From a virus (taxonomy: Duplodnaviria; Caudoviricetes), in the IMG/VR virus record IMGVR_UViG_3300020439_002263, positions 1 through 57,981 of that record: a DNA stretch of 57,981 nt; one strand, given 5' to 3'. Of this stretch, positions 19,536 through 38,220 are shown piece by piece; positions within the stretch are counted from its first letter, which is position 1; each line of letters begins with the position of its first letter. The notes under the pieces are model-generated. The model made no database searches, had not been told where the DNA came from, and saw nothing but the letters and a program-made list of their open reading frames with translations. A program made the position numbers and the translations under genes.

Positions 19536-21733
19536 AAGCTCCGCGCCCGGTTGTAGTAAAACGCCTCGAACTCGGCGCTTTGAAACACTGATTGTACATG
19601 TGCGTCATTTATTAAACTTACTTTAGCTACCTTGGAATCGCCGTATACTTGAAAGGCATAACGGCCTGTATGAAAGACGGGCTCCCCAATCTTGAGGGAG
19701 CTCTCCCCCAAGGACTTACCAGTAAATTCAGAGAGCTGGGCAGGTACAACGCTCTCAACAAGCGGGTCAGTACCGTAAGGGGCGACCTCCGTTTTAAAAA
19801 ACGCGGTGTCTGTATAATATACAACGAAAGTCCTCAGCATCAATCTCCCGGTTGTTACCGCCTTATCGCCGTTCATCATGAACTGCTCGGAGAATGTATA
19901 CCTCATGGTATAGCCTTGGCCGGCCCATACAACTTTATCTGCATGGTTTCCCGGTGCTCGAATAGTTGTAGGACTAATCCACTGATACTGAGAAGGGTCA
20001 ACCAGGGAAAGAACTTGACCAGCGAACCCAGAACCACGTACCAGTCGAAATCCCGGCTGGTTAACAGGATCTACCTGATAAGGAAGTCTCCATTCTGTAT
20101 AGTCCCCAGATGAATAATATGTACCAACGACAGCCGTCAGCCGGTCTAGAAGAACCTGTCTATTCAAATCTCCTGTGGTGGCACCAGACTGAAGATCGGC
20201 TTTCTCTAAGAAAACACCCTCGCTTCTCTCTATCAAGAGATACAGTTCATTGTCCAGAACCTCTATAGAAAGGATTTTATCTGTAGAAGGTAGTTCCCAG
20301 TAGGACCACGCCGATTGGGCTTTTCCCCCTTCATTCCAGAAGAATTTATAGACATACAGGCGGTTAGGTGTATCGGCTGATAGAGCGAACAATACATCCT
20401 CGTTCGCGTTTCCTGTCATTTTAATAACATTCTTAGGTAAATAACGAGGGACATGGGCGGTGATGTCGGCAGCATCTGTGGAGTTCGTATCACCGTCATC
20501 TACGAAATACTCACGGACCCGACTGTAGTTACCGGATTCTGTCACGAAGTAGACGTCGTTACCTATAGGCACAGGACGTACTTTAGTGGACATCTCATAG
20601 TCCGTAACCGTGTCGATAGAAACACTGGAAGGCGTGAGTAACTGATCAACGTTCAGGGCGAACTGTGTCTGATCTGCAAACAACATCATGTTATTGTTAA
20701 AGGGTACTGCGTACTTCAGAAGTGAGACTTTAGTTGATGAAACAGCTACATCAACCACGTCTGAGTCAAGTAGGTCCGTGACGGTGTTGCGCCAGAAGTT
20801 TCCGAAGTCGCCCGCACATGAGAACACCACGTTCTCGTCAGTAACAAAGCCCAGCCTGTTCTTATAGTAAAAAACGTCTTGTATAGTCCTCCCAGCGAAA
20901 GACGGGACGGGATTAGATACTTCGTCCCCGTACCGGCGGACGTCCCAAGCGAACGGTCTGAAAGAGAACGTACCGTCGCTCTCCCTGACTAGAGCATGAG
21001 GCATGGTAGTTTCGTCAAACGCAGTGCTGTTACCCGGGGCATGTGTTTCTTCCCATACACCTCCCCGGCGAACGACATAGTAGGCTCCAAAAGAATCCTC
21101 GTCGTAACCGGCAACTTTCCAAAGATCCCCTTCCATAGGTGCCGGATTATCGCCCGGCTTAGGTAGATCATTGAAAGTTTGAACTACACCCCGGTAGGTA
21201 CCGTAAGCGGGGTTGTAATACCTTAGTTGATTTATAAGAGATGCTTCTAGCCGACCAAGTACTCCATCCCGTCTTGGGGATACCCATTCATTAAGGTTGG
21301 CAGGGACGCCTGTGGGAGCATCCTTAGTCTCTACCTTTATAGTCTTATTAACGACGAACGTATAATCAGCGATAGAAACCAACGCGAACGACTGGGATAC
21401 ATCGGTATTCCCTGTAACCAGATAGCTTTTACCTAGTGGGAAACTGACAACTTTTTCACTACCGTTGGTGTCGAAGACTTTTAAGTCCCCCTCAAATACA
21501 ACAACAATGTAACGCTCGGCTGTGTCGCGATTAATCGTGTGTATAAAAGCGCCATTAAACGGCGTCGCGCCCACTTTAGCGATATGCTCCAGCGGTGGAC
21601 GCTTCCGCAGTCCATCTGCTACTGTTCCGTAGGCATTTATCTGCTCTTCACACTGCGAGGGAAGTCTCAGTGTCGCAGGCTGCTGACTGACGCCATTGAA
21701 CAACGCAGGTAGCTGACGGCTAATAAGGGCCAT
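19532..21733 (-). CDS. Tail tubular protein B (nozzle, gp12)
   Basis: GVSQQP..LR, GLRKRPP, FYYKNRLGF, DITAHVPRYLP, QSAWSYW. Confidence 0.95.
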   Translation of the reverse strand: MALISRQLPALFNGVSQQPATLRLPSQCEEQINAYGTVADGLRKRPPLEHIAKVGATPFNGAFIHTINRDTAERYIVVVFEGDLKVFDTNGSEKVVSFPLGKSYLVTGNTDVSQSFALVSIADYTFVVNKTIKVETKDAPTGVPANLNEWVSPRRDGVLGRLEASLINQLRYYNPAYGTYRGVVQTFNDLPKPGDNPAPMEGDLWKVAGYDEDSFGAYYVVRRGGVWEETHAPGNSTAFDETTMPHALVRESDGTFSFRPFAWDVRRYGDEVSNPVPSFAGRTIQDVFYYKNRLGFVTDENVVFSCAGDFGNFWRNTVTDLLDSDVVDVAVSSTKVSLLKYAVPFNNNMMLFADQTQFALNVDQLLTPSSVSIDTVTDYEMSTKVRPVPIGNDVYFVTESGNYSRVREYFVDDGDTNSTDAADITAHVPRYLPKNVIKMTGNANEDVLFALSADTPNRLYVYKFFWNEGGKAQSAWSYWELPSTDKILSIEVLDNELYLLIERSEGVFLEKADLQSGATTGDLNRQVLLDRLTAVVGTYYSSGDYTEWRLPYQVDPVNQPGFRLVRGSGFAGQVLSLVDPSQYQWISPTTIRAPGNHADKVVWAGQGYTMRYTFSEQFMMNGDKAVTTGRLMLRTFVVYYTDTAFFKTEVAPYGTDPLVESVVPAQLSEFTGKSLGESSLKIGEPVFHTGRYAFQVYGDSKVAKVSLINDAHVQSVFQSAEFEAFYYNRARSL

Positions 21734-21749
21734 ATCTCACCTCACCTCA

Positions 21750-22349
21750 CTAATTACGGTAGAAGAACACCCCGTTGGTGTCGCTGCTGTTTCTGAAGAT
21801 ATTCCTATCTTTAGTTCTGGCCTCCATCCGCGTTAAAAGGGCGAATGCTTCGGTCTCGTGGAGATCGGTAAACCTAAACAGGATATCCGACCCGATCACC
21901 TGAGACTGGAAGATCCTAGCCGCTCTAGTAGCGATGTAAGTCCGAGCTGCCTGCGGGATAGCCTCAAAATCCATAGCCCAAATTATATCACATTCGACCG
22001 GGCTTTTATTTATTTTAAACGTATGATTCTTACGATCATACAACATTAACTGCCCGCCGTTGTCTCTAACCACTAGATCTAGACTGGGATCACTAGGATC
22101 TACGCTGAGCGAACCTGTGGGGACGTTTATATAACCGTTGACGTCCACAGAGAGTGGATAACGTTTATCTGTATTAAAAGACCACCCCCGGTTGAGGACT
22201 TCGCGGGTTGTGTTGTCCAAGGCCAGCGTGGCAATGTTTACATCCCGAATGCCTGTGACATCTAGAGAGTTCACTGGGGCTTGACCAATACTCGCCAACA
22301 TACCGTTGACAGCATCTAACTTAGTCATAGGGGAAAGGGGGTTGATCAC
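21750..22349 (-). CDS. Tail tubular protein A (gatekeeper, gp11); GTG start likely
   Basis: TKLDAVNGMLASIGQAPV, GWSFNT, YIATRAARIF. Confidence 0.93.
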   Translation of the reverse strand: MINPLSPMTKLDAVNGMLASIGQAPVNSLDVTGIRDVNIATLALDNTTREVLNRGWSFNTDKRYPLSVDVNGYINVPTGSLSVDPSDPSLDLVVRDNGGQLMLYDRKNHTFKINKSPVECDIIWAMDFEAIPQAARTYIATRAARIFQSQVIGSDILFRFTDLHETEAFALLTRMEARTKDRNIFRNSSDTNGVFFYRN

Positions 22350-22362
22350 AGTAGCTCTCTCC

Positions 22363-22391
22363 AAAAATAAAGGGGGGCTATAAACCCCCCA
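22363..22391 (-). terminator. T-phi-like terminator after capsid gene
   Basis: Minus strand GGGGGGTTTATAGCCCCCC followed by TTTATTTTT. Confidence 0.8.
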
Positions 22392-22402
22392 GTACTAAAG
22401 TG

Positions 22403-23350
22403 TTACAGTATTTTAATCTCAACAGCACACTTAGTGAGAATAGGTCCATGACCGACAGCATATTCGGCGATCATCAGCGTCCCACGACGGCGTGGATCCC
22501 ATGCCGTCTCGAACCCGAGTCCCATGAGCTGTACGGTACCTACAGCCGCTTCAGTAAACACGACTGCCACAGTGTTTGTCATGTCAATACGATAGTCTAC
22601 AGGCAAGCTCGTGTTCGTGCTGTCGTTAACCCCCCAAGGGAAGGCATTAGATTTAACAACTTCAACCCCACCAATCATGGAGAACTTGCCCTTACTATAA
22701 GAGCCGTCTCCGTCAACGTCACGGTTGAGGATGAGTGTCGGTTCCTGCGCGAGCAGATACCACTGAGCAGGACGCACAGCGCAGTTGACCTTCACGTTAT
22801 CAACGGGGACGTCTTTTTCCTCCATCGTCTGTTTAGCTGTCCAAATGGAGCCAGCAAGAGACAGAGCATTAGAGTTTGCGTCGGCGTCAACGATAGCGCT
22901 CCCTCCCTGATCCCCCGTAAAGAGGGCGGCGCCGCGAGCAGCACGAATGAGGTTACGTGCGATGTTCTTATCATACTGGGTAGCAAGGAATTGACCCTGC
23001 TCATCAGAATAAACACTGCGCACATCATAGTGATTCATCGCCTCATCAATAGAAGCAATGAAGACGTCCGACACGAGCAGGTCGTCGATGTTGATCACTA
23101 CTTCAGTGTGGGAGATAGCCCGCCCAGTGAGTTCCTCACCGGGGGTATGATACCCACCAGATGCCTTAAATACAGCAGGGAAGCTCGCGCTCTTCCCGTG
23201 CGTAATCGTACGCTGGCGAGTCAGTTCTTTCAAAACAACGTTAGTTTCAAAAGCAGTAAGCACTTCGCCAGCGTATACTTTTTCAAAAAGGGCTTTATCG
23301 TCGCCTGTTTTATCGACTTGGCCCAAGCGAGATGCAGTTGCGTTAGCCAT
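22403..23350 (-). CDS. Major capsid protein (gp10); start moved to ATG 23350
   Basis: ALFEKVYAGEVLTAF, RTITHGKSASFP, IDDLL, NHYDVRSVYS. Confidence 0.96.
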   Translation of the reverse strand: MANATASRLGQVDKTGDDKALFEKVYAGEVLTAFETNVVLKELTRQRTITHGKSASFPAVFKASGGYHTPGEELTGRAISHTEVVINIDDLLVSDVFIASIDEAMNHYDVRSVYSDEQGQFLATQYDKNIARNLIRAARGAALFTGDQGGSAIVDADANSNALSLAGSIWTAKQTMEEKDVPVDNVKVNCAVRPAQWYLLAQEPTLILNRDVDGDGSYSKGKFSMIGGVEVVKSNAFPWGVNDSTNTSLPVDYRIDMTNTVAVVFTEAAVGTVQLMGLGFETAWDPRRRGTLMIAEYAVGHGPILTKCAVEIKIL

Positions 23351-23628
23351 GTGTGATTCCGTTATTGTTGTTATAAGGTTGGAACAATTATAAATGCCCG
23401 AAATTTTCTCCACACCACGCTAAGGTTATCCTCCGCAGAGGGCCTAAGATGTCGTGTTGTCTGTGGGGCTTCTGGTGCGGGTGATCAGTCCGCATTAATG
23501 TGAGAGTAAAAAGTAAGCGGCCCTTCGTATATTGTCATAGGGCCGCCAGAGTCCCGGTAAAGAGTCAACCGAGACAGGAAGAGAGAGAGAGATTTTTATA
23601 TCAACTAGAGGGTTCGTTATCGCTAATA

Positions 23629-24516
23629 CTAACTACTGAAGAGATCAATACCAGCCTTCGCTGAGCGGTCAATTTTAGCGGCTACCTCATGCCTAAACGC
23701 CGGGTCCGTTTTATACTTCGGACTCCGCATATCCTCCATCATCTCCGCTCGGCTCTTATATACCGATATAGGTCCACTTCCGCCTGTGATATAATTATCA
23801 GGCTCCACATCAGCCTCGTTTCTGTAACGAGCGAGTAACCCTTTAACGGCGAAAATAGCGCTATCAGTATTCACGAGTGCATTATTATACGAAGAGATCT
23901 CTTCTGGGGATAGGTTCTCAGACGCCCATTTCACCAGCTTATCATACTGATCTGCGTCAACGCCGGCGGCTCTAAATACCACGTCGACTTGAGCATCAGT
24001 CTGAGCTTTTGCTCCTGCAATATACTGATCCACCATTGCACGAGAGAAGCCAGTCTTCTCAAGCGCCGCATAGGTCTCTTCGGAAAGAGCCCCCGTGTCG
24101 GCGAACTCCGCCTCCGCAGCGGCTCGTAACTCGTCAAAGGATGAGACTACTTTCCCCGGGGCGTCCCCTTTATTCTGATCGACCCCCGCACCGTCATCTC
24201 TAGAGCTGTTTTGTGATTGCTTAGAGCGGGCACTCTCCAACTCAATATAAGACTTCAATAAGGCATCTACGTTTATAGTACCCTTCTCTGCGTCCCAAAA
24301 CTTATCGGGCACGTGATCCGGCTTTGTGGACTTGTTCTCTTCAGTATTTGTTGATTGCTCACCCTCCGACTTGGTCACAACGACTGTGTTACTATCCTTA
24401 TCCGTTCTACGGAAGGTGATATCTGCCTCTTCAGCCTTTTTTACCATTACAGTCTCGTGCTCATCGGCGTCGCCAATAGAGCGGCCTTCACCCATCGGGA
24501 TGTTCATCTTAGCCAT
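23629..24516 (-). CDS. Capsid scaffolding protein (gp9)
   Basis: VPDKFWD, LLKSYIELE, MRSPKYKTDPAFR. Confidence 0.9.
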   Translation of the reverse strand: MAKMNIPMGEGRSIGDADEHETVMVKKAEEADITFRRTDKDSNTVVVTKSEGEQSTNTEENKSTKPDHVPDKFWDAEKGTINVDALLKSYIELESARSKQSQNSSRDDGAGVDQNKGDAPGKVVSSFDELRAAAEAEFADTGALSEETYAALEKTGFSRAMVDQYIAGAKAQTDAQVDVVFRAAGVDADQYDKLVKWASENLSPEEISSYNNALVNTDSAIFAVKGLLARYRNEADVEPDNYITGGSGPISVYKSRAEMMEDMRSPKYKTDPAFRHEVAAKIDRSAKAGIDLFSS

Positions 24517-24525
24517 TTACAACCC

Positions 24526-24726
24526 CTAACTACCTCTACGAGTACGTAGGAACTTAGGATCAACATCGACCCTAGTCTCGATAGCATCCCCATTCGCTAA
24601 TTTACTGACTACATATTCGCTACCGTCATCTCTTTTCTCAGGTTTGGATGTTGACACAATGGGGTTGGGTTCTAGGACAGGTGCGTCCAAGCTACGTACT
24701 TTACGCGAAGGTTTAGCGTTAGCCAT
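24526..24726 (-). CDS. Hypothetical virion-module protein
   Basis: GAGGAG RBS; packed between portal and scaffold. Confidence 0.65.
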   Translation of the reverse strand: MANAKPSRKVRSLDAPVLEPNPIVSTSKPEKRDDGSEYVVSKLANGDAIETRVDVDPKFLRTRRGS

Positions 24727-26272
24727 TAGATTCTCCTCTAGTTACTAAATCTGATATATTTTTAGCCAGAGCTCCAGACACTGGCCCGACTGCTTTATCC
24801 ATAATCTGTGCCGCCATCTGAGCCTGCTGTTCCTCAGCGATTAAACCCTCATCTTTCAGTAAACCATCGACGTCAACGTTATGTGCGGTAGCAAGCGTTT
24901 TAGCCACCTTCTCAACGTCGAAACGCTGAAGCGCCTGCGGACCCACAACCTGAGCCAGATCAGTAAAATAAGCGCGTAGTCGGTTGAGCTCATGGCCCCG
25001 TCCTAACGCGTCAAATCCCGTGACTATAACCGGCTCTATAGTATCCTGACCGTTCACTTTAGGAAGTATAGGGAACTCACCTGCTCGCCTCATCTGGGCT
25101 ATAAGCCGTTTAACGATAGGAAGCTGTAGTTCGCGAGAGAGAACTGTATATACACCGCCAAGGACGTCCTCTAGTTCCTGTGCCATAGCCCTAATTTCCT
25201 GAGCAGTCACACGCTCAGCATCGCGGATCATACCGCTTTGGAGAAGAAACGCGTTAGAAAGCCGTGACGTCAGCTCATCAGCGACCTCTTTAGAGACCCT
25301 GAAATCGGCGTATTTATCAAGCTGTAAGACGTCCACATCTTCTATTTTACCTGTAATTACGTCCCCCGACTCCGCTTCAACTAAGGCATCAACATCCGTC
25401 GTTGCGTTTGGGTGGACAAACAGTACGATTTTTCCGGCGGCAGCAGAGAAAGATAGAATAGCCTTGGAAATAACGTCTAAACCATGTAAATCTCCTATAT
25501 ACTCTTCTACTAGGCCCCGCCCATAGTCTTCATTCTCGACGGCAGTCCAACGAAGAAAAATAAAAGGTGACTCACTTACTTTATTCCGGCCTCTCGATTC
25601 AGGAACTTCGATGTCGTTGATCTCCTGAAAATACTCAACGAACTTGCCCCCATTTTTAAGCTCTATCTTTGTATAAACATCAACTTCTTCTCTACCGCTC
25701 TTCGGGCTCGGATCTACGGCACATGCCTTTCGCACGTCTTCTTTCAATGTAGAAGGATGTACAGTCTCCTTAATCACCGCTTCGGTAACGACCCCGTAGG
25801 CATCACGAACAACGCAATACTGATTCAGGCTATACATCCGCGCAGGCCCCTCAGTGGGGATAAGAAGTAAAGCGTTGCCGGTGACTATTAAGTGTTTAAG
25901 TACTTGGTGAAGGGTCACCCTGAAGTTGCTACTCTCGATGCGGCTCATGGCTCTGTTTTCAAGCTTTCGCAGCGCTTCCTCTACAGCATCGCGCTCAGCG
26001 CCTAACTCCTCTACCACTGAATCCGCGATCTGTAATCTAAAGAAAGACGTACCGGGCGGTAGCAGAGCCAGAAGAAGCTTAGACGCCAGATTATTCACTC
26101 CGAACGAGCCCAAAGACTGGTATGGAGTGGGTAGACTCGAATTTTCGTCAGAACCTTCCGGAGGCATAAGCGCCGGAATCGTTAAACGAGCGGCCTCCCG
26201 TGCCCGCCTTAGAACCCCACCCCGTTTGGTCTGTAAACTCTCCCACCGACTTTTTATACTAGCCATGTACAA
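24719..26272 (-). CDS. Portal / head-tail connector (gp8)
   Basis: PYQSLGSFGVNNLASKLLLALLPP, EDYGRGLVEE, RDAERVTAQEIR. Confidence 0.96.
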   Translation of the reverse strand: MYMASIKSRWESLQTKRGGVLRRAREAARLTIPALMPPEGSDENSSLPTPYQSLGSFGVNNLASKLLLALLPPGTSFFRLQIADSVVEELGAERDAVEEALRKLENRAMSRIESSNFRVTLHQVLKHLIVTGNALLLIPTEGPARMYSLNQYCVVRDAYGVVTEAVIKETVHPSTLKEDVRKACAVDPSPKSGREEVDVYTKIELKNGGKFVEYFQEINDIEVPESRGRNKVSESPFIFLRWTAVENEDYGRGLVEEYIGDLHGLDVISKAILSFSAAAGKIVLFVHPNATTDVDALVEAESGDVITGKIEDVDVLQLDKYADFRVSKEVADELTSRLSNAFLLQSGMIRDAERVTAQEIRAMAQELEDVLGGVYTVLSRELQLPIVKRLIAQMRRAGEFPILPKVNGQDTIEPVIVTGFDALGRGHELNRLRAYFTDLAQVVGPQALQRFDVEKVAKTLATAHNVDVDGLLKDEGLIAEEQQAQMAAQIMDKAVGPVSGALAKNISDLVTRGESNG

Positions 26273-26275
26273 CTC

Positions 26276-26635
26276 CTAGTACAGTCTTAGTCTCCCCAAA
26301 CCCGTGTCTTTACGATTTCCCCGACTGCGGCTATTGGGGTTACCTGAAGCAGGGACAGGTGTGGGTGATAGGGATTTTATTGGTTTGTTAACTAGAGGAT
26401 TAGAGCCCGGACGAGCGTTCCCTCGCGGCCCCAATGTCTGTGTACCCCTCTGCACCCCACCTCTACTACTAAAACCTACACCTAAACCTGTGTCGAGGGG
26501 GATGCGGAGAGAATTCCTACCGCTTCTCAGTGATCGTACTAGGGCTAGATCGCTTCTAGTATCATCCAAGTAGGGGTTCCTCATATACTGAGGCTCAGGG
26601 ATTTCTATCTTCTGTGGTTTCGGAGCGCCACACAT
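26276..26635 (-). CDS. Virion assembly protein (gp6.7/7.3-like); start moved to MCGAPKP
   Basis: MC..PK start, GRNSLRIPL motif, position before portal. Confidence 0.65.
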   Translation of the reverse strand: MCGAPKPQKIEIPEPQYMRNPYLDDTRSDLALVRSLRSGRNSLRIPLDTGLGVGFSSRGGVQRGTQTLGPRGNARPGSNPLVNKPIKSLSPTPVPASGNPNSRSRGNRKDTGLGRLRLY

Positions 26636-26819
26636 GTCGTTTCCTTGTGTTTTTATTTGTAGCTTCAAACCATTCTTGAAGGAACTCCACGACATCCACA
26701 GCCCCAGAGTACCTTAAATGTTCCTCATAACTTTCGTTAGATTTAATCCGTCTATCAGGATAAATCTTGACCAGTGTCGCTATTAAATCTTCAGTGTTCA
26801 AGGGGATAGGGTTCTGCAT
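26595..26819 (-). CDS. Hypothetical (gp6.5-like position)
   Basis: LI..L...YPD and G...VVEFL pattern; first gene of late operon. Confidence 0.65.
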   Translation of the reverse strand: MQNPIPLNTEDLIATLVKIYPDRRIKSNESYEEHLRYSGAVDVVEFLQEWFEATNKNTRKRHVWRSETTEDRNP

Positions 26820-26829
26820 GAAATCACCA

Positions 26830-27105
26830 TGTCTACGGGCCGCTGTCCGATCACGAACCGGCCTTTAAACACACCGCCATATAGTTCAATATCGAAGCCT
26901 ACTTGAGCTGGCGGAGACCTCGCGATGATACCTACCGTCAGTAGGCTAATACGCGTGTAGATGTTGATTTAGGCTACTAACAAAAGAAACGCCGCCCAAA
27001 GTCGGCGTCGGGCCGGAGATGTTATCTCCGGCGGGGTTTATAACCGTAGCCTAGGTAAGATAACCCGTTAATAAAAACCCAGCTACTAACTAGCAGTTTC
27101 GTGAG
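26830..27105 (-). ncRNA. Putative structured RNA leader of the late operon
   Basis: Two multibranch domains of nested inverted repeats directly downstream of a phage promoter; no ORF in the track. Confidence 0.5.
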
Positions 27106-27109
27106 GGTT

Positions 27110-27126
27110 GTAAGGATGCACCCTAA
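27110..27126 (-). promoter_or_regulatory. Phage RNAP promoter (late/structural operon)
   Basis: TTAGGGTGCATCCTTAC immediately after the exonuclease stop. Confidence 0.8.
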
Positions 27127-27897
27127 TTAATAAAGAAAGAAGGGTTCCCACAATTTAATCGTCTTCGTCTTGTAGTTATAATCATACCACCTGAGAATTC
27201 GGGAAAGCCTCGCTTGGTGTATGGCGTCAGCTTCAGTGAAGCCCTTAAGGCAATAAGCTTCAACGACAATATCCCACAGCTCTTCTCGCTCCGCACTTAT
27301 AACCTCCTCAGCGTAAACAGACTTAGGGCCTATTCCCGGACACCCGGGGTAACCATCAGTGCTATCTCCACACAGCGTCTGCCACATATGAAACCTATCC
27401 GCGTCCAGTTCACTAACCTCGATAACCCCTAGCTCCGCGTAGTTTGGGTTGTAAATCTTGGCCGGAATCGTGCGCATATCCTTATCCTCAGAGACTATTA
27501 CCTTCTCCCCCGGTATGATCCTAGGGTGCGTGGCGAGAATCCCCATAACGTCATCAGCCTCTAACCTAGGTCTGACGTATGATTCATATTTCTGGCCTAA
27601 GTAATCTTTAACGTAACTTAAGAGCACAGGCTTACTGATCTTCTCCCTGTTCTTTTTATAACTCGGTTCGAGCTGCTTACGGAAGTTCTGATGTGGATCC
27701 GTAAAACATATAACCACGGAGTCGGCTTTTAACACATCTGAGTATTCTTCAATCAGCTCATCCACACGTGCTCGTGCCGCTTGTTCGTCCACCGCGACCG
27801 CGAAGTCGCCATCCCCATTAAAATCATAGCGCTCTTCAGCGACTGCCGCTGTCTTATAAGCTATAATATCGGCGTCGAGAAGGATCGTCCTTCTCAT
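27127..27897 (-). CDS. 5'-3' exonuclease (gp6)
   Basis: LLDADIIAY, YKKNR, LEADDVMGI, SEDKDM, GDSTDGYPGCPGIG. Confidence 0.93.
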   Translation of the reverse strand: MRRTILLDADIIAYKTAAVAEERYDFNGDGDFAVAVDEQAARARVDELIEEYSDVLKADSVVICFTDPHQNFRKQLEPSYKKNREKISKPVLLSYVKDYLGQKYESYVRPRLEADDVMGILATHPRIIPGEKVIVSEDKDMRTIPAKIYNPNYAELGVIEVSELDADRFHMWQTLCGDSTDGYPGCPGIGPKSVYAEEVISAEREELWDIVVEAYCLKGFTEADAIHQARLSRILRWYDYNYKTKTIKLWEPFFLY

Positions 27898-28304
27898 TTG
27901 CGGCCTCCGCCCAGTTGATTCATCCGCCACTCACCATATGCACGGTAGCCATAAACCGCAGCAATCATAACGGCTATCGCTGCCTGATACCAAACCGGAG
28001 TCTGCTCCAGGATCTGAAAGCCCCGCAGTATGTAATCGCTCAATCCGGGGATAAAACAGCCTATCATAGGAATTGAGAGTACAAGAGTCATATACTCATC
28101 TTTCCATCCGTTATTATTAAGAGCGTGTTGCTCCCACTTAGCTTCCTCAATTTTCCCCTGCTGAATTAAGTCCATAGCTCGGTTAAATCTAGCCTCCTCT
28201 AGTTTGTCCGCACGCTCTTTCTCCTTAGCTTTTTGTTCTTGTCTTTTTAGAAAATATTGTGGAACATAGCCTATAATACTACGAACAAGACTCAACCATC
28301 CCAT
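27894..28304 (-). CDS. Putative holin (3TM/GTA-holin-like)
   Basis: WKDEY..LVLSIP...FIP and P.WYQ....AAVYGYR motifs, hydrophobic segments. Confidence 0.65.
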   Translation of the reverse strand: MGWLSLVRSIIGYVPQYFLKRQEQKAKEKERADKLEEARFNRAMDLIQQGKIEEAKWEQHALNNNGWKDEYMTLVLSIPMIGCFIPGLSDYILRGFQILEQTPVWYQAAIAVMIAAVYGYRAYGEWRMNQLGGGRK

Positions 28305-28827
28305 GGCTTTCTCCTATAGCACCTATTAAACGTCCCTTAGTGTTAGCTTTAATGTGTTTTAATTGAGCCGAGACAGAAGGGGCCTCTTCCTTCCGCCGAG
28401 TACTAGGTAAGTTACACCAATAATAGAGGATAGAAGCTTGGTCCCGCTTGAGCATTAAATGAGGTAAAACAGTGTATAATACGCTCCTCAAGTCGCGGAG
28501 AGCAGCAACTTCCCAAGTATGGACTACCTGTCCTGTAGAACGACGGTAGGTATAGAATCTGCCTCCATAAAGCTGCGCTATAAGCGACAATAACGCGTGC
28601 TCCCGTTTACCGATCATACTAACTGCCAATCGAGGGCGGTAGGAAGTCTTCGATTTATACAATCCCAGACTTCCTTCCCCGTCTATTAACCCACCTAAAT
28701 ACGCATTAGTGAGTCTCAGCCCACGAGGTCCCGATAGCGTAATCTCCTGCAAGGGGACACCGTAAGTTAAAATGCCTTCCGGCCTCCCTGATCGAGGCGG
28801 CCGCCATTCGTCCGACAAACTCGGCAA
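28279..28827 (-). CDS. Single-motif LAGLIDADG homing endonuclease; start uncertain, overlaps pol 3' end
   Basis: AYLGGLIDGEGSL motif, LYGGRF, VLPHLMLKRDQA. Confidence 0.85.
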   Translation of the reverse strand: MPSLSDEWRPPRSGRPEGILTYGVPLQEITLSGPRGLRLTNAYLGGLIDGEGSLGLYKSKTSYRPRLAVSMIGKREHALLSLIAQLYGGRFYTYRRSTGQVVHTWEVAALRDLRSVLYTVLPHLMLKRDQASILYYWCNLPSTRRKEEAPSVSAQLKHIKANTKGRLIGAIGESHGMVESCS

Positions 28828-30691
28828 CGTCTTCGTCTACCTCCATTTGAAATTCGTCGTGAATATTGCCACAGAACTCGTATTCTTCTCCGGGCGTTAA
28901 ACCTACCCGCTGGAGCAAATCGTCAAGAATAATAAGAGCTTTCTTCATCACCACGGCTCCTCCGCTTTGTAGTAAAGCGTTGGGCGCCGAATGCTCAGAC
29001 CTAATGTGGATATGACGGCCATCAAGCCCGATGAGGTATCCGCGCCGTGCGGCCTTCTTAACGGCCTCAATGAAATTACCCAGTGCCGGTAGGTTCTTCG
29101 CTACATTATCTCTAGTTTTCTTCCCCATACGCGCAATCGCGGCATCCCGCTTCTTACCTTTAGGGTAGGTTTCATAGAACCTCTTACGTCCCTCTTCGCT
29201 TAAGTCACCGAGCGCGATACGGCCCAGTTTATGATTACCCGCACCGTAGATCATAGCGTAAAACCATGTCTTCGCGTTGTCCCTCGAATTGAAGCCTAAC
29301 GCCTTTTGGTTTAGCGTATGAGCATCCGTGCCATCCTCTTTATTACCTTCGGTCACTGCTCTAACGTAGTCACCATTATCCCACTTAGCCATGTAGTGCG
29401 CGAGTAGCCGGAGCTCTAGTCCTTCCGCATCACATCCTACCAGCTTTTTACCAGTAGGAACCGTGAACAACCTACGACAAGCTTCCCCGTAAGGCGCCCG
29501 TGAAGCCGGTACCTGAGCGATGTTAGGTTCAAAGTGTGTCATCCGACCGGTTACGGCGCCGTTAGGGTTTACTCGTCCATGTATACGAGAGTTCGGTTTC
29601 ACGACCTTCAACCACGCCTGCGTCCCCTCAGCAACTTGTCCTAAGCGTTTCTCAACCATAAGATACTCTGACAACAGTTTCGCCTCATCCCACGGAAGAG
29701 AGGACAAAACCGTCTCGTCTACTTTCGGTTTCCCTGACTCCGTGAATTCATCCGGTTTCCACTTGAAGAGTTTAATCAACCTATCGGCAATATGATCTCT
29801 GGACCCCGGATTAAACTCCACAAGTTTTAACTTAGTCATCGGACATCCTGTAGTGTACCCCAAACGGGCGTTATCCCGTTTTGGAATAAAAGGCTTTGAA
29901 CCTACACGGACATAAAAAGGGGGGAATGTCTCCCTGAGTATTTGCTCTAGCTCTAGCTTCTTAAGTTGAAGTTCTTTAGTCAACCGCTCCGCAGCTTCAA
30001 CATCAAATAACCAGCCGTTCCTCTCCTGCCGTGTAATAATCGAAGCAACGGCATGTTCGATACTTAAGCACTCTTCCGAATAGTTCTTTCCGTCGAAGTG
30101 TTTTAAAACATATACACTCGTTCTGACGTCTTGCATGCAGTATTCGTCCATGTCCTTGATGAACGGCACGGTCTTCCATGTATACTTCTTACCAGTCCGA
30201 GGGTTAATGTAATGATCAGGGCTAAAATCATCTTTCAGAGGTCCGCCTAGCCGCATTCCCCAAGCTTCGAGTTTATGTGATCCAGCTAACCCCTTCCCGA
30301 AGAACGCATCGCTGAGACGACCGCGACGTCTCATAGCGAAATCTAAATCTTTTAGGTTAGCATACATAACACGAGACATCACTAAGGTGTCTCTAATTGA
30401 GACGCCATCTTTAGGCTTCCAGTCGGGATAAACCGCCTTAATCGCTGGAATATCATAATTTATAATGTTATGTCCCGCTAAGACATCGCCAGAAGCTAAG
30501 TGTTTTAAGCCGTCGCATATCGTCCCAGTTCTAGCCGTAGGTTCTTCCGTAAATCCCCCGGCTAAATCCTGATAGTGACTATAATCTGTGTAACGATATT
30601 CTTCATCAGTGTTTAGGTCTATAATGTTTATACAATATATTTTTGTAATATCATCAATAAGGCCATCCGCCTCTATGTCAAACACCAACAC
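28706..30691 (-). CDS. DNA polymerase family A (gp5); GTG start at 30691 after AGGAG
   Basis: FDIEADG exo I, GHNIINYD, DAEGLELR, RDNAKTWFYAMIYGAG, IHDEFQ. Confidence 0.97.
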   Translation of the reverse strand: MLVFDIEADGLIDDITKIYCINIIDLNTDEEYRYTDYSHYQDLAGGFTEEPTARTGTICDGLKHLASGDVLAGHNIINYDIPAIKAVYPDWKPKDGVSIRDTLVMSRVMYANLKDLDFAMRRRGRLSDAFFGKGLAGSHKLEAWGMRLGGPLKDDFSPDHYINPRTGKKYTWKTVPFIKDMDEYCMQDVRTSVYVLKHFDGKNYSEECLSIEHAVASIITRQERNGWLFDVEAAERLTKELQLKKLELEQILRETFPPFYVRVGSKPFIPKRDNARLGYTTGCPMTKLKLVEFNPGSRDHIADRLIKLFKWKPDEFTESGKPKVDETVLSSLPWDEAKLLSEYLMVEKRLGQVAEGTQAWLKVVKPNSRIHGRVNPNGAVTGRMTHFEPNIAQVPASRAPYGEACRRLFTVPTGKKLVGCDAEGLELRLLAHYMAKWDNGDYVRAVTEGNKEDGTDAHTLNQKALGFNSRDNAKTWFYAMIYGAGNHKLGRIALGDLSEEGRKRFYETYPKGKKRDAAIARMGKKTRDNVAKNLPALGNFIEAVKKAARRGYLIGLDGRHIHIRSEHSAPNALLQSGGAVVMKKALIILDDLLQRVGLTPGEEYEFCGNIHDEFQMEVDEDVAEFVGRMAAASIREAGRHFNLRCPLAGDYAIGTSWAETH

Positions 30692-30728
30692 AACGTTTCT
30701 CCTATAAGAAAGCCGCCGTGAGGCGGCC

Positions 30729-31286
30729 TCAAGCTGCGCGTGTCTCACCCACGCCCAGTAAACGGGAGCTAGTAGCTAGAAACTCCTCTAAACTACCGTT
30801 ATTGTGGATATTAATGTCAACAAGACGATGTGATATTCCCAGCTCACTCACGTGAGCTGATGCGTGCGCCACGCCGATTCTATGGATCTGAACAATCGTA
30901 CCTCCTTTGCTCTTCAGCCACTGCGCCTCGTTAGAGAAGCGTATATCCGGCACAACGATTTTTAAACCGGTCTTATTAATTAGATCTCGGTTAATTCGAT
31001 CTTCAAGTAGTCTGATCCATAGATCCTCACCCACCAAACGACGACCCCATTCAGTACCTAACGTCTGAGCTAGCTGACGTGGGGACACCCCCGTAAGGCG
31101 GTGCTTCGTCTCTTTCCATTTCCTATCTTCCCACATGGCCATGTTCCACCCAAACATGGCGTTAATGGCCTGCTTCAATGGCGTAGAAAGGGTGTATTTA
31201 GTAAATCCATGCTTAGCCACTAAGTAATCCGCGAGCGTGTCTTTACCAGACCCCGCCCGGCCAGTTATCCCAACGAATTTATCCAT
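30729..31286 (-). CDS. Deoxynucleoside monophosphate kinase
   Basis: GITGRAGSGKDT, SPRQLAQTLGTEWGR, DIRFSNE, HVSE. Confidence 0.92.
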   Translation of the reverse strand: MDKFVGITGRAGSGKDTLADYLVAKHGFTKYTLSTPLKQAINAMFGWNMAMWEDRKWKETKHRLTGVSPRQLAQTLGTEWGRRLVGEDLWIRLLEDRINRDLINKTGLKIVVPDIRFSNEAQWLKSKGGTIVQIHRIGVAHASAHVSELGISHRLVDINIHNNGSLEEFLATSSRLLGVGETRAA

Positions 31287-31297
31287 GCTATATCACC

Positions 31298-32962
31298 TTA
31301 ATATTCTAAGATACTATCGCTTCCCATGGGATGCTTACCTTTGGACACCGCGCTAAATGAACCGTCTGGAAGTAGTCTACCAGTACCACGATCGTAGACT
31401 AAGCGGTCTGCCAATCCTAAGTCGCCGAACATCCTATTCTTAAGAACCCTGGCTCTGCTTATATCGCACTCGTCTTCGTCTTGCTGATCACGCTCTAGGG
31501 CAATTATTGTGTCACTCAGTTGTTCGAGGGCTGCCGATCCCCGTAAGTCGCTGAGAGACACCTGTCCCCCCTCATTAAACGACTTTTTATTGTTTGGCCT
31601 CTTTAAGTGAACGATCGCAATTACACCTACGCCTGTACGCTCAATGAACGAGCGCAGTCTAGTCATTAAACGGTCGATATCTTTACGCTCTCCCTCCCCA
31701 GTACCTTCTTGATCAGCTACAACCATTGAGATATGGTCAAGGATAATAAAATCACACCTTTGACCTATCGCCATATAATTAAGCTTAGACACAAGTGTAT
31801 CGGACTCTAACGAGCCGAAGTGGTCATAAAAAAATACCCGCCCAGATAGTTTATCTATCGTCTCCCTGTACTGATCCGCCGTAAGCTTCTTAGGGTTAAT
31901 CATCAGTTCGCCCAGCGGTACTGCATGATCAATAGCTACATATCCGCGAGCGGTCTTCTGCACCGACTCTTCCAAATAGACATTTCCTACGTTAAGACCA
32001 TGAACAGCCGTTAGGTGATACCCCAGCTCCCTAGCCATCGTGGATTTCCCAATACCAGAACCTGCTGTTAAGAGAAGAAGTTCCCTCTTCCGTATCCCCC
32101 TAGTCTTTTCATTTATAACCGGGTAGGGAGTGGGATACCCCTGATCACCTTCATCCATCAGGTAATCAACACTAATTTCATCCAACGCCACTATACCGTC
32201 TGGACGATACTCTTTAGCCTCCCAGAGCGCGTTTATGAGCTCTTTAGCGAGTCCCTGTAACAAACATTCATTAGGGTCCTTCTCCGGTAAATAAGCGATA
32301 TAACCCTTCCCCGGCGAGAGAAGAGAGGCGCACTCTCTAGCTGCCGCAGCTCCCGGTTCATCCATATCAAATGCAAAGATAACTCGGTCAAACCGCTCTA
32401 CCCATTCTATCTCTTTAGCAATCGCCTTGGCTGCGGCCTGAGCGCCGTTCGGCACTGAGACCACTGGCCATTTATTACCCTGCAATTGCGACACGGTCAA
32501 AGCGTCTATCTCGCCTTCAGTAATGACTAGACGTTTACCTCCATTCCCCCAGAGATGTTGGCCGAACAAGCCTACCTCTTTGGGCTGCCCCAAAAACTTA
32601 AACCTTTTACCGGGAAATCTAAGCTTCTGAGCTATCACACCGGAGTCTTTCCTGTAATTAGCTATTTGGACAGGCTTACCCTCATACTTACCTACTTGAT
32701 AGCCAAAAAGGCGACATGTTTCCTCCGAAATACCGCGCTTAGCGAGGGAGCGGTATTCGCCGTCCACGATTAACCTCTTACCCATCTTCCCGCTGTGGCG
32801 AGTTTTAGTCCGACCGCCATCTAAACTGTTAATATGATAGCCGCAAGCAAAACAGTGAGCATGGCCGTCGCTGTAGACGACCAGATTATCCCCACTGCTA
32901 TCGCCACCCTTTGATGCACACTCAGGACATTGCTCCTTCCAACTAACGACTGAATCAATCAT
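31298..32962 (-). CDS. Primase-helicase (gp4)
   Basis: CPEC...HCFAC zinc ribbon, ITEGEIDA TOPRIM, AGSGIGKST, ILDHIS, DLRGS. Confidence 0.97.
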   Translation of the reverse strand: MIDSVVSWKEQCPECASKGGDSSGDNLVVYSDGHAHCFACGYHINSLDGGRTKTRHSGKMGKRLIVDGEYRSLAKRGISEETCRLFGYQVGKYEGKPVQIANYRKDSGVIAQKLRFPGKRFKFLGQPKEVGLFGQHLWGNGGKRLVITEGEIDALTVSQLQGNKWPVVSVPNGAQAAAKAIAKEIEWVERFDRVIFAFDMDEPGAAAARECASLLSPGKGYIAYLPEKDPNECLLQGLAKELINALWEAKEYRPDGIVALDEISVDYLMDEGDQGYPTPYPVINEKTRGIRKRELLLLTAGSGIGKSTMARELGYHLTAVHGLNVGNVYLEESVQKTARGYVAIDHAVPLGELMINPKKLTADQYRETIDKLSGRVFFYDHFGSLESDTLVSKLNYMAIGQRCDFIILDHISMVVADQEGTGEGERKDIDRLMTRLRSFIERTGVGVIAIVHLKRPNNKKSFNEGGQVSLSDLRGSAALEQLSDTIIALERDQQDEDECDISRARVLKNRMFGDLGLADRLVYDRGTGRLLPDGSFSAVSKGKHPMGSDSILEY

Positions 32963-33117
32963 TTTCTACTAACGCCCTTTGATAATCTACGCCCCCTGAG
33001 AACAGTCCAAGCAGGTTCCTTAACAATACCTAAACCCTTCCTAGGTTTAAAACCTACCGCCTCGAATGCTAATCGCAACGCCGTAGGACGCCGCAAAATG
33101 TATTTACGCTGTGCCAT
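32959..33117 (-). CDS. Small basic hypothetical protein (52 aa)
   Basis: Fills the gap; ATGA overlap with primase start. Confidence 0.45.
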   Translation of the reverse strand: MAQRKYILRRPTALRLAFEAVGFKPRKGLGIVKEPAWTVLRGRRLSKGVSRK

Positions 33118-33118
33118 G

Positions 33119-33337
33119 TCAACAACCCTCTCCCTCGAATGCCAACGAGTATCTAGCGTAGCGCTGACCTAGCAAGTCGCGTTTTAGTACCCGCTGTATC
33201 TTATGTCCTTCCTGTCGTAGAACAGAGATACGTTTCGGAAGATCACGAATTCTATATAAATCTTCTGCTTCCCTCCCGGATAGGCTACCAACCTCTTTGA
33301 GATGTCTTAATACAATCTCTTCCTGTCTCATACACAA
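33119..33337 (-). CDS. Small helix-turn-helix protein
   Basis: VLRHLKEVGSLSGREA..LYRIRDLPKRISVLRQEGH...YARYSL. Confidence 0.75.
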   Translation of the reverse strand: MCMRQEEIVLRHLKEVGSLSGREAEDLYRIRDLPKRISVLRQEGHKIQRVLKRDLLGQRYARYSLAFEGEGC

Positions 33338-33351
33338 CTCCTTAGCGAAGA

Positions 33352-33786
33352 TTAACTGTTAGACTTCCACCATTCCCTAACGTCAAAGGACGGACATGCT
33401 TTATAAACATGTGGAAGATCCCTATGACCCAGTACTTCTGCATCCGGGTAAGATGCCTTCAAACCTCTAAGTAAACTCTTAAGAGAACTAAACTGAGCTT
33501 CTGTGAAATTATTCTCGGCTGTTTTACCGTCTCCAGCGACACCGCCTACGAGACATACACCTAAAGAGATATGGTTAAACCCCCGGGCGTGTGCTCCGGG
33601 CCTGTCAATAGAACGGCCAGCTTCTACAGTCCCATCACGGCGGATCACAAAATGATACCCAATATCGAACCACCCACGGTTCCTGTGCCATTTCCTGATT
33701 TCAGCAGCTCCAATATCCTGACTGGATCTGGTAGCCGAGCAGTGGACCACAAGATATTCCACCGAGCGAATTGTTTTATGCTTCAT
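33352..33786 (-). CDS. N-acetylmuramoyl-L-alanine amidase (T7 lysozyme gp3.5-like)
   Basis: VVHCSAT, DIGYHFVI, GAHARG, GHRD, KACPSF. Confidence 0.95.
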   Translation of the reverse strand: MKHKTIRSVEYLVVHCSATRSSQDIGAAEIRKWHRNRGWFDIGYHFVIRRDGTVEAGRSIDRPGAHARGFNHISLGVCLVGGVAGDGKTAENNFTEAQFSSLKSLLRGLKASYPDAEVLGHRDLPHVYKACPSFDVREWWKSNS

Positions 33787-34207
33787 ACTCTCCTATTTCT
33801 ATATCAACACGAGGCGCTTCTTCGGGACAGACGAAGCGCTTCTCCCAGCAGGCTTTAACAATCTGGTCGTCATCCTCCCAGTAACCTTTTTTAGTGATCA
33901 CATCATAAACAGCCTTTTCAAAGTTATCGCCATCCCCTCTGGGGTAGGACCGTTTAGTAGTCCTAGGTCGGTGACACACGAAGCTCACACGAACTACAAC
34001 AGGTCCTTGTAAAGGCCCTCTTGTGTTCTGCGGTACAACGTCCTCCGCAACCTGCATCCACTCTTTATAGTTTTTACCGTAGTAAACCCCCCAACGACTA
34101 ACCCGGGGACGCGACGCTGGAACGGGCGGCCATAAAAGGGAGAGAGAGACCTGCCCCCTCTCCCCCCATTCAACCGCACACCCGGGACTAGAAATCGACT
34201 TCGTCAT
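33776..34207 (-). CDS. RusA-family Holliday junction resolvase (start probably ATG 34207)
   Basis: PVPASRPR, DGDNFEKAVYD, WEDDDQIV. Confidence 0.85.
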   Translation of the reverse strand: MTKSISSPGCAVEWGERGQVSLSLLWPPVPASRPRVSRWGVYYGKNYKEWMQVAEDVVPQNTRGPLQGPVVVRVSFVCHRPRTTKRSYPRGDGDNFEKAVYDVITKKGYWEDDDQIVKACWEKRFVCPEEAPRVDIEIGEYEA

Positions 34208-34877
34208 CTTCGTCCACGTCAGGTTCAGTATCGCATAAGTCTTCTTCGCATACAGGATCCGCTGTATACCCCCCTTCAATAGCCTCGAAGCCATAGGCTT
34301 CCGCTGAAGGACCGCTTCTCCCCGGGCCTTTAAGATCTACTACCTGTACAGCTTGGATCTTAAGCGAAGGACCAAATTCTTTGAGACTTGAATTCTCATA
34401 GAAGTAAATAAAGCCGGCAATTCGTAGCTTAGAACCGCCCCATATATCATCAACCGCAATGGGCTTGTTGTTACTGTCAAACAAAAGAGGCGCCGCCTGC
34501 GGCATACCCTTACTGTCAAACGCCTTCTTGGAAAAGCTCAATAGGATGTTCCCCGTGGGGTTACCCTCGCTGTCTTCCTCTTCTACCCACAGGTCTTTAA
34601 TAGACCAATTCTTGTCGTATTCCCTACGTTTCCTAAGACTCGCTTCTTCATATTTTTGTTTATAAAAATCCTCTAGAAGCAGTTTAATCTCCCCGATGAA
34701 CTCCTCAGCCTCCTCAGCTGGAACAGCTAGTTTAACTTTCCACGCTTTAGTACCCTTGAATTCATCATACTTTACAAGCTTCGGGAATACTGCTGTACCC
34801 AGTGGGCTTATGAAATTAAAGAAAGTCTTGTTTCTAGATTTACGAACCGTGATATACTTATGCTTTTTACCCTTCAT
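34188..34877 (-). CDS. ssDNA-binding protein (gp2.5)
   Basis: SPLGTAVFPKL, IWGGSKL, LKIQAVQVVDL, acidic tail ending in F. Confidence 0.9.
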   Translation of the reverse strand: MKGKKHKYITVRKSRNKTFFNFISPLGTAVFPKLVKYDEFKGTKAWKVKLAVPAEEAEEFIGEIKLLLEDFYKQKYEEASLRKRREYDKNWSIKDLWVEEEDSEGNPTGNILLSFSKKAFDSKGMPQAAPLLFDSNNKPIAVDDIWGGSKLRIAGFIYFYENSSLKEFGPSLKIQAVQVVDLKGPGRSGPSAEAYGFEAIEGGYTADPVCEEDLCDTEPDVDEDDEVDF

Positions 34878-35266
34878 CTGTCTTCCTCAACAATGGTGTA
34901 AATCAGATCAAGCAATGGACCCGCGAAAGTAGGCAATCCGCGTCCGTCAAAGCCCAGCTTCCCTCGTTCTATATCCGTTCTAATCCTTTTAAAATCAGTC
35001 TTAACAGGGTCCCAGACGTACCTATAGCCATATTTTTTATCTAGAAACCCACGTACTTCGAATAGTCCATCCTCCACACGGAAAAGTACAAAAACTTGAG
35101 CATCGTTGGGATCTCTAGAACAGTAGCCAAATAGAATTTCAACGGAGTCTGGATCTATGAAGTCAGACTCCTCAAACACTTCCATTAATTCATCTACTGT
35201 TACACATTCTCCCATGATCAGAGGCGGACTAACGGTGTCCCCAGTCGATTTAAATCTACCCGTCAT
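34874..35266 (-). CDS. Hypothetical protein
   Basis: 130-aa ORF, ATGA overlap with SSB start. Confidence 0.7.
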   Translation of the reverse strand: MTGRFKSTGDTVSPPLIMGECVTVDELMEVFEESDFIDPDSVEILFGYCSRDPNDAQVFVLFRVEDGLFEVRGFLDKKYGYRYVWDPVKTDFKRIRTDIERGKLGFDGRGLPTFAGPLLDLIYTIVEEDR

Positions 35267-35313
35267 GTCTACCCTTCATGTCTACCCTTCATGTCTACCC
35301 GTCATGTCTACCT
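35255..35313. repeat. 13-bp tandem repeat x4 plus partial at a gene junction
   Basis: tctaccc(g/t)tcatg at 35255, 35268, 35281, 35294. Confidence 0.9.
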
Positions 35314-35567
35314 ATCTCGTGTTTCGCGTACTCCTTAATAGCTTTAATCGTGGAGCTAAAAGGACCGTCGACATCAGCCGCTGCCCTAGATGCAATCTCA
35401 AGTAAGTGTTTAATGTCAGTCCCTGTCGCTTCACACATACTCAACAACGCTAGCGCTGTTCCCAGGATCTGGTGTTCAGGTTTATCTTGTGTCCTATCAA
35501 TAACCCTGAACGCAGCTCTACGCAGGTCCGCGTTCGTAATGCCTAGCGAAAATCTATACCCGTCCAT
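35295..35567 (-). CDS. Hypothetical protein, first gene after RNAP
   Basis: GGAGGAG RBS; 90-aa ORF. Confidence 0.75.
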   Translation of the reverse strand: MDGYRFSLGITNADLRRAAFRVIDRTQDKPEHQILGTALALLSMCEATGTDIKHLLEIASRAAADVDGPFSSTIKAIKEYAKHEIGRHDG

Positions 35568-35595
35568 GACTCCTCCGATCAGCGTTCTGGTTTCT

Positions 35596-35612
35596 GTAAG
35601 GATGAGTCCTAA
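35596..35612 (-). promoter_or_regulatory. Phage RNAP promoter (replication operon), variant
   Basis: TTAGGACTCATCCTTAC, 3 mismatches to consensus. Confidence 0.65.
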
Positions 35613-35647
35613 ACAGAGGGTTATGGATATATAACTCTATGTGTAAT

Positions 35648-35666
35648 TATCCCATAAGTGGGAATA
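35648..35666. promoter_or_regulatory. Palindromic operator copy
   Basis: tatcccataagtgggaata, abutting RNAP stop codon. Confidence 0.7.
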
Positions 35667-38114: not shown

Positions 38115-38165
38115 ATCCCCGTCTCCTACGTAGGAACTAAAGAAATATCTAAGGGATCCCCCCAT

Positions 38166-38182
38166 GTAAGGACGCACCCTAA
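38166..38182 (-). promoter_or_regulatory. Phage RNAP promoter upstream of the RNAP gene itself
   Basis: TTAGGGTGCGTCCTTAC, 1 mismatch to consensus, followed by ATGGGGGG. Confidence 0.75.
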
Positions 38183-38200
38183 CTGCTATTTTTGAAGGGA

Positions 38201-38220
38201 CATTCCCACTAGAGGGAATA
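38201..38220. promoter_or_regulatory. Palindromic operator copy upstream of RNAP
   Basis: cattcccactagagggaata. Confidence 0.7.

Follow-up and report, generated by a model that had tools for sequence, protein, structure and literature searches.

A candidate promoter-proximal terminator and folded leader at the boundary between DNA-metabolism and virion genes of a temperate T7-like prophage

What is the role of the long gap without open reading frames (ORFs) that separates the exonuclease gene from the virion genes in this phage? An earlier note on this DNA had read it as a highly structured RNA of about 280 nt, serving either as a phage ncRNA or as an attenuator of the late genes. We found the gap to contain a known kind of phage control element, and not a new 280-base RNA or RNA class. 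The best-supported account is that the gap controls the boundary at which the DNA-metabolism genes of a marine, temperate T7-like prophage give way to its virion genes. With moderate confidence, we regard it as a promoter-proximal leaky terminator followed by a leader at the middle/late boundary.

Gene order and promoter copies

The window analysed here is the whole stretch of 57,981 bases, an IMG/VR record rated 99% complete. All phage genes are on the minus strand, in the order listed below.

38574-39743, minus strand: tyrosine integrase
35667-38177, minus strand: single-subunit RNA polymerase (RNAP)
28706-30748, minus strand: DNA polymerase (DNAP)
28279-28827, minus strand: HNH endonuclease
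27127-27930, minus strand: 5'-3' exonuclease of 267 aa, the last DNA-metabolism gene (Pfam PF02739, E 9.3e-12)
between the exonuclease and the first late ORF, minus strand: ORF-free gap of 303-307 nt
26595-26819, minus strand: first late ORF, 74 aa, product starting with MQNP (phrog_25618, E 1.1e-4)
after the 74-aa ORF and before the portal, minus strand: ORF of 139 aa
24719-26272, minus strand: portal (PF12236, E 1.7e-88)
22403-23413, minus strand: major capsid, preceded by the scaffold
between capsid and large terminase, minus strand: tail and internal proteins
4706-6448, minus strand: large terminase

The GC content is higher above position 42000, and that region looks like a host flank. 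Based on this rise and on the content and order of the genes, the record was identified as an integrase-encoding T7-like prophage. Among named phages, the closest are HTVC-type pelagiphages, CRP roseophages, Rhizobium RHEph phages and Pseudomonas LUZ100, with a portal identity of at most 46%. Portal-based scans gave 61 related loci (30 viral, 2 genome and 29 metagenome loci), the best having 58% portal identity. Exonuclease homologues in the relatives are 40-61% identical, and homologues of the 74-aa ORF were found directly 5' of the portal in loci L002, L003, L005, L007, L024, L034, L037, L041 and L055. Between the RNAP and terminase genes, the gap studied here is the longest stretch free of ORFs (303 nt).

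The 18-nt sequence TTAGGGTGCATCCTTACA or a near copy of it was detected four times in the window, always on the minus strand, where 0.04 copies are expected. This count bears out the phage promoter that had been proposed ahead of the structured RNA, and together with the gene order it places that RNA, as claimed, at the head of the virion-gene block, on the transcribed strand and right after the promoter. The motif is a putative promoter judged from its sequence, and its copies are located as follows.

38182-38165, minus strand: P1, before the RNAP gene
35612-35595, minus strand: P2, after the RNAP gene
27126-27109, minus strand: P3, abutting the exonuclease stop codon; candidate promoter of the gap
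4709-4692, minus strand: P4, after the terminase gene

Transcription from P3 would start at about position 27108. ACCCUC is found 3' of P3, in contrast to the G-rich start after P1 and P4; P3 may for this reason be a weak promoter, which counts against the leaky-terminator reading. No match to the motif with up to three mismatches was detected in the 61 related loci.

P1 lies about 50 nt 5' of the RNAP start codon. With this arrangement the polymerase would be able to raise its own expression, as has been suggested for Pseudomonas phage LUZ100, in which a phage promoter is also described ahead of the RNAP gene (PMC10134795). Operator-like palindromes of one family occur in three places (38202-38219, 35650-35663 and 3831-3844): P1 and P2 are each closely preceded by one, ATTCCC-N6-GGGAAT and TCCCATAAGTGGGA respectively, and TCCCACATGTGGGA is found at 3831. 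A stricter form of the pattern gave two matches compared to 0.24 expected. These palindromes are candidate repressor sites for the control of lysogeny; the three copies in the window are all elsewhere than near P3.

Folding of the gap and the terminator-type hairpin

On the minus strand the whole 307-nt gap had a minimum free energy (MFE) of -105.4 kcal/mol (z -3.0, with 0 of 100 shuffles as good), and on the plus strand -97.3 kcal/mol (z -2.09, 2 of 100 shuffles as good). The parts of the gap, with MFE values and the number of shuffles that folded as well, are listed below.

27054-27108, minus strand: first 55 nt of the putative leader; -9.6 kcal/mol, z +0.12, 106 of 200 shuffles
26970-27053, minus strand: domain 1, a four-way junction of 84 nt; -39.0 kcal/mol, z -4.06, 0 of 200 shuffles
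26970-27053, plus strand: domain 1 on the opposite strand; -38.0 kcal/mol, z -4.07, 0 of 200 shuffles
27032-27012, minus strand: perfect 9-bp hairpin GCCGGAGAU-AAC-AUCUCCGGC; -15.6 kcal/mol, z -5.55, 0 of 200 shuffles
26979-27009, minus strand: terminator-type hairpin GACGCCG-8 nt-CGGCGUU (stem-loop 27009-26988) and its tail UCUUUUGUU, identified by a terminator scan
26831-26961, minus strand: domain 2, a run of separate hairpins up to the ribosome-binding site; -43.1 kcal/mol, z -0.99, 31 of 200 shuffles

The first 55 nt showed no structure beyond chance, and the structure signal of the gap is carried by domain 1. Here an 8-bp clamp, formed by UAGGCUAC (27053-27046) and GUAGCCUA (26977-26970), encloses three hairpins with loops of 3, 3 and 8 nt: GGUU-AUA-AACC, the 9-bp hairpin and, beginning two bases after it, the terminator-type hairpin. 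Pair probabilities of the four helices were 0.55-1.0, mostly above 0.84. Domain 1 appeared in the MFE fold of the whole gap and also in the centroid fold, and it held in the leader as well as in read-through RNA from the exonuclease gene. The second hairpin and the terminator hairpin are predicted to form in nascent RNA too, the terminator stem with a probability of 0.74-0.98 when the transcript reaches no further than that stem. The U-tract precedes the 3' strand of the clamp, so that the four-way junction would close only on read-through RNA. The most unusual single element is the 9-bp hairpin with the AAC loop, which in DNA is a 21-bp palindrome; it is unique in the window, and a search of IMG/VR for the exact 21-nt palindrome gave 0 matches.

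Domain 2 is not a closed domain and its stability is at chance level. The closing stem (UCUAC at 26961-26957 with GUAGA at 26836-26832) had a probability of 0.03, and the three hairpins taken singly had probabilities of 0.5-1.0. No ORF of at least 30 aa was found in domain 2, and the best tblastx match of the gap had an E value of 0.22.

The pairings listed in the earlier note were all found in the minus strand at the coordinates given there, including the pair AGCCUACU/AGUAGGCU, but one RNA of about 280 nt comprising two closed domains was not supported, given that domain 2 folds at shuffle level and its closing stem is not predicted. A switch by alternative pairings had also been proposed. 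The pairings in question (c:d and a:c), built on the words TAGGCT/AGCCTA, had a probability of about 0 at equilibrium. Two copies of a 6-mer together with two of its complement were seen in 171 of 5000 dinucleotide shuffles, and the pattern is weak given its post hoc choice. The preference of G-U wobbles for the minus strand turned out to be negligible: the strand difference is small for domain 1 (-39.0 on the minus and -38.0 kcal/mol on the plus strand) and for domain 2 (-43.1 and -38.1 kcal/mol), and for domain 1 either strand folds as well as the other, so that the palindromes could act at the DNA level, a further point against the leaky-terminator reading. That no known RNA family is represented was confirmed with Rfam, which gave no match at gathering score in the whole window and nothing up to E = 10 around the gap (26700-27250). 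The suggested cloverleaf-like decoy found no support, as ARAGORN detected 0 tRNA genes in the whole window, Rfam gave nothing to the same limit and the sizes of arms and loops are not tRNA-like. A translated micro-ORF, raised as a possible objection, was not found either, the coding strand of the gap having no ORF of at least 30 aa.

In a scan of 670 windows of 150 nt (positions 1-42000) the one with domain 1 had a z of -3.73 and ranked 16th lowest; domain 1 is structured, yet it is not the most structured place of the phage, and several other gaps surpass it. The most structured 150-nt window in the scan was 1501-1650 on the minus strand (-54.4 kcal/mol, z -6.63; 0 of 200 shuffles folded as well), a long near-perfect hairpin in the gap between the ORFs 883-1284 and 1667-2347. 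The segment 40351-40500 (minus strand, z -5.32) has two long perfect hairpins of 11 and 12 bp with AT-rich stems, and belongs to a 635-nt stretch without ORFs upstream of the integrase module; these hairpins could be regulatory or related to an attachment site.

The terminator-type hairpin has a GC-rich stem-loop of 7 pairs, 5 of them G-C, with an 8-nt loop and -10.9 kcal/mol (z -1.93; 9 of 200 shuffles folded as well). Its stem ends with UU and is followed by UCUUUUGUU, a U-run broken by a C; the U-rich tail UCUUUUG (TCTTTTG in DNA) after the stem-loop is present on the coding strand only. In the terminator scan of positions 20001-40000 this site ranked third of 26. The rule of the scan was simple and its 26 sites in 20 kb compare with 16.7 expected from shuffles, and this argues against the leaky-terminator reading. 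Two of the top three sites are intergenic, namely this one and the second-ranked hairpin at 22390-22372 (-14.9 kcal/mol), which is located right after the capsid gene. Such a position is the classic one of a T7-type terminator. The post-capsid hairpin (22372-22390) is a strong GGGGGG...CCCCCC stem with a U-run. The gap before the capsid gene (23414-23628, minus strand) opens with the hairpin GGCGGCCC...GGGCCGCU and then a U-rich run, with a z of -3.2 for 23414-23560. With a hairpin and U-run both before and after the capsid gene, units bounded by hairpins are the rule in this phage.

The gap had further been proposed to be an attenuator controlling the late genes. A terminator-type hairpin is indeed present and fits this option; a switch built from the alternative pairings was not supported. 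No antiterminator overlapping the terminator stem was found, with no upstream segment complementary to GACGCCG when the sequence was read, and no helix competing with the terminator stem, as characterizes an attenuator or riboswitch, was found.

The corresponding gap in relatives

The earlier note suggested comparing the exonuclease-downstream regions of relatives. No match was obtained with blastn of the gap against 50,697 phage records. Against the 30 viral loci, blastn (word size 7) and nhmmer gave nothing below E 2.4, and against all 61 loci nothing at E ≤ 1. A single-sequence covariance model of domain 1, run on 43 sources (334 kb), detected no homologue; it matched itself, its own reverse strand, an off-locus site in L022 (E 0.03) and one more at E 1. 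The element is therefore not conserved in these relatives in sequence or in structure, and it has no support from covariation, which speaks against the leaky-terminator reading.

What recurs is the kind of element. A hairpin followed by a T-run within 450 nt of the exonuclease stop was detected by script in 9 of 22 distinct relatives with an exonuclease homologue, and bulged hairpins with a T-run were seen by eye in the post-exonuclease gap of L025 and L039. The other 11 of the 22 have no such gap, because an ORF abuts the exonuclease gene. The loci with a hairpin and U7-8, which belong to uncultured marine T7-like phages, are L002, L003, L005-L009, L037 and L041; CGAG is often next, and then the ribosome-binding site. 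The hairpin of the window thus resembles those of the relatives, being the same kind of element in the same gap, but it differs in three ways. In most relatives the hairpin abuts the ribosome-binding site, whereas about 160 nt separate it from the start codon in the window. The window hairpin is also weak compared to theirs (-14.6 to -22.3 kcal/mol with U7-8), an observation against the leaky-terminator reading, and it is flanked by two extra hairpins and the clamp.

In L003, the second-closest relative, a promoter motif like that of the window lies directly 5' of the hairpin and U8, giving the same order of promoter and then hairpin; no second copy of this promoter-like motif was found in the loci searched. 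The order is not general, since in L037, L041 and L039 the terminator apparently comes first and the promoter second, as judged by eye, and this too weakens the leaky-terminator reading. An inverted partial copy of the window promoter core (TAGGGTGCGTC) adjoins the forward promoter-like motif of L003. The gap of L003 also contains a 49-codon ORF (3313-3462); its product as read by eye starts with MKRLPFLLLLSLAVTSC, a sequence that looks like a lipoprotein signal peptide.

Some relatives have tRNA genes in the post-exonuclease gap, upstream of the hairpin and U-run: tRNA-Asn and tRNA-Met in L025 (3156-3311), and tRNA-Asn in L009 and L030 (3295-3370). In L009, genes for tRNA-His and two tRNA-Lys are found further upstream. 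From the anatomy of these gaps, a terminator-type hairpin is a regular occupant of the slot after the exonuclease gene, and small RNA genes are an occasional one.

A leaky terminator weighed against other readings

About 75 nt past P3 there are two adjacent stable hairpins, the second with a U-rich tail, and P3 and the terminator-like hairpin, both read from the sequence, would be about 120 nt apart. From the observed elements, their order, the repeated motif and the hairpin with U-run in the same gap of relatives, we infer promoter activity, termination, its leakiness and any stabilising role of the fold as follows. The U-tract hairpin would stop part of the transcription that arrives from the upstream genes. 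It would also stop part of the transcription started at P3, giving a short RNA of about 125 nt, and polymerases reading through would make the late mRNA. On this read-through mRNA the clamp would close the junction and produce a stable folded leader. Domain 2, the remaining 130 nt, would serve as a spacer, with ordinary hairpins that reach almost to the ribosome-binding site.

Several lines of evidence favour a leaky terminator here. The gene context fits, with RNAP, DNAP and exonuclease upstream and portal, scaffold and capsid downstream, and the gap is the longest ORF-free stretch from RNAP to terminase. The promoter count far exceeds expectation (4 vs 0.04), the stem-loop 27009-26988 with TCTTTTG ranks third of 26 in 20 kb, and domain 1 combines a z of -4.06 with high pair probabilities. 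Among relatives, a hairpin with a T-run is found in 9 of 22 by script, plus L025 and L039, and L003 repeats the order of promoter and then hairpin. In addition, T7 phi6.5/R6.5 occupies the equivalent boundary, and terminators are known within 5'UTRs of Pseudomonas phages.

Phage LUZ19 is presumably a member of the T7 family. In six Pseudomonas phages studied with ONT-cappable-seq, 42 termination sites are reported inside 5'UTRs, of which 34 lead either to a short RNA (less than 250 nt) or, by read-through, to a long mRNA; 29 ncRNA candidates are listed, two of them in LUZ19 (PMC10914365). The layout here is similar to that described there, with a putative promoter, then a candidate terminator less than 250 nt on and before the first gene; the expected products would share a 5' end, one being short and structured and the other a longer mRNA. 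In contrast to those mapped cases, start and termination are predicted here from the sequence, and the polymerase would be the phage single-subunit RNAP. Like T7 Tphi-type (class I) and bacterial intrinsic terminators, the element has a GC-rich stem-loop and a U-rich run, on the transcribed strand and intergenic; the same phage has a stronger example at 22390-22372 after the capsid gene. Unlike them, it has a 7-bp stem (-10.9 kcal/mol) with a broken U-run, follows a promoter instead of closing a transcription unit, and is enclosed by a clamp stem that would form only after read-through.

The RNase III sites of T7 form irregular hairpins that span about two helical turns. At the class II/III boundary of this phage, the promoter phi6.5 and then the RNase III site R6.5 reportedly follow the exonuclease gene 6 (Dunn and Studier, 1983). 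Transcription from phi6.5 starts immediately upstream of R6.5, the processing site of this equivalent boundary (PMC6938266). The gap is like that region in following the exonuclease gene and preceding small ORFs and the portal, and in having a late promoter and then structured RNA. This raises the question whether the hairpins mark an RNase III-type or other endonuclease processing site, which would cut the polycistronic RNA and leave hairpin-protected ends as at R6.5. The position, just downstream of a late promoter and after the exonuclease gene, is that of R6.5, with the start site upstream of the cleavage as described for T7 (PMC6938266), and the hairpins are stable enough to protect new ends. 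However, the longest uninterrupted helix has 9 bp and the clamp 8 bp, far from an irregular duplex of two turns; the gap has short hairpins, one with a U-tract, in place of a long irregular duplex, and no sequence similarity to the T7 region. We consider such a site improbable.

The same promoter-to-terminator anatomy could also delimit a discrete small RNA of about 125 nt (27108-26982), a trans-acting or decoy ncRNA gene of the phage in the slot used by tRNA genes in relatives. The tRNA genes in the gap of L025 and of L009/L030 are in line with this, and short RNAs derived from 5'UTRs are listed as ncRNA candidates in other phages (PMC10914365). Nevertheless, neither Rfam nor the tRNA search gave a match, and blastn, nhmmer and the covariance model revealed no homologue in relatives. 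The 127-nt unit reached only z -2.10 (4 of 200 shuffles as good), its 5' 55 nt being unstructured. The longest antisense match in the window was 12 nt (E 0.33), and the best duplex with 44 translation-start regions was at chance, 62% of 200 shuffles being as good. A small RNA of this kind appears unlikely, if somewhat less so than a processing site. We give the same low weight to a more far-reaching proposal, by which P3 and the U-tract would bound a small RNA of about 125 nt made by the phage polymerase in the tRNA slot of the relatives, when or how strongly the virion genes are expressed would depend on its release or on read-through, and the clamp would mark the two fates of the transcript.

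Two further explanations dispense with a function of the folded RNA. The gap may be mostly a neutral spacer, in which nothing but the promoter is of importance and the hairpins are chance remnants of a rearrangement. This is plausible for domain 2, which is at chance level; there is no conservation in relatives, the closest relatives L002, L005 and L007 do with gaps of about 90 nt, and 15 other 150-nt windows of the phage have a lower z. For domain 1, on the other hand, 0 of 200 shuffles folded as well, a hairpin with a U-run recurs in the gap of relatives, and phage genomes are compact, this gap being the longest non-coding stretch in the core. As an explanation of the whole gap a neutral spacer is unlikely, although the least so among the alternatives. 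Alternatively, the 21-bp palindrome and four TAGGCT/AGCCTA words may form a protein-binding site in the DNA, for a roadblock repressor, replication or recombination. The palindrome is perfect, domain 1 scores alike on both strands (z -4.06 and -4.07), and 5 of 36 matches to TAGGCTAC with at most one mismatch cluster in 160 nt. Yet the palindrome has no second copy in the window, TAGGCTAC shows no overall enrichment (36 matches, 39 expected), the 2x2 word pattern arose in 171 of 5000 shuffles, the repeated operator-like palindromes of the phage differ in sequence and sit near P1 and P2, and the U-tract is on the transcribed strand only. We hold this to be the least probable of the readings.

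Temperate T7-like phages of marine bacteria are common, and their transcription has hardly been studied. The locus offers a candidate promoter consensus from four copies, one of them before the polymerase gene, and a candidate promoter-proximal terminator at the switch from DNA-metabolism to virion genes. If a leaky terminator were confirmed, it would add to the examples in which leaky termination sets the dose of phage late genes, and would provide a small orthogonal pair of promoter and terminator for synthetic biology.

Public sequencing runs were also considered. The stretch was almost complete in five DNA runs, and four metatranscriptome runs of one marine sample contained 6-8% of its sampled words. 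The metatranscriptome contigs are sparse, with 20 short pieces of at least 99% identity within 22659-30247, in the capsid, scaffold, portal, exonuclease and DNAP genes, and 0 over 26820-27126. The phage or a near-identical one is present in the RNA library of another study; DNA carry-over is possible.

Two further repeats were observed in the window. Right after P4 and the terminase gene, at 4531-4653, a 38-nt unit containing an inverted repeat (ATCCTAAAGGATAATCGTTAAGCTTATCCTTTAGGAAC-like) is repeated in tandem about three times, and an AT-rich tract is next; this may be a genome-end or packaging region. At 35255-35319, five tandem units of 13 nt (TCTACCCGTCATG-like) overlap the start of the 130-aa ORF 34874-35266.
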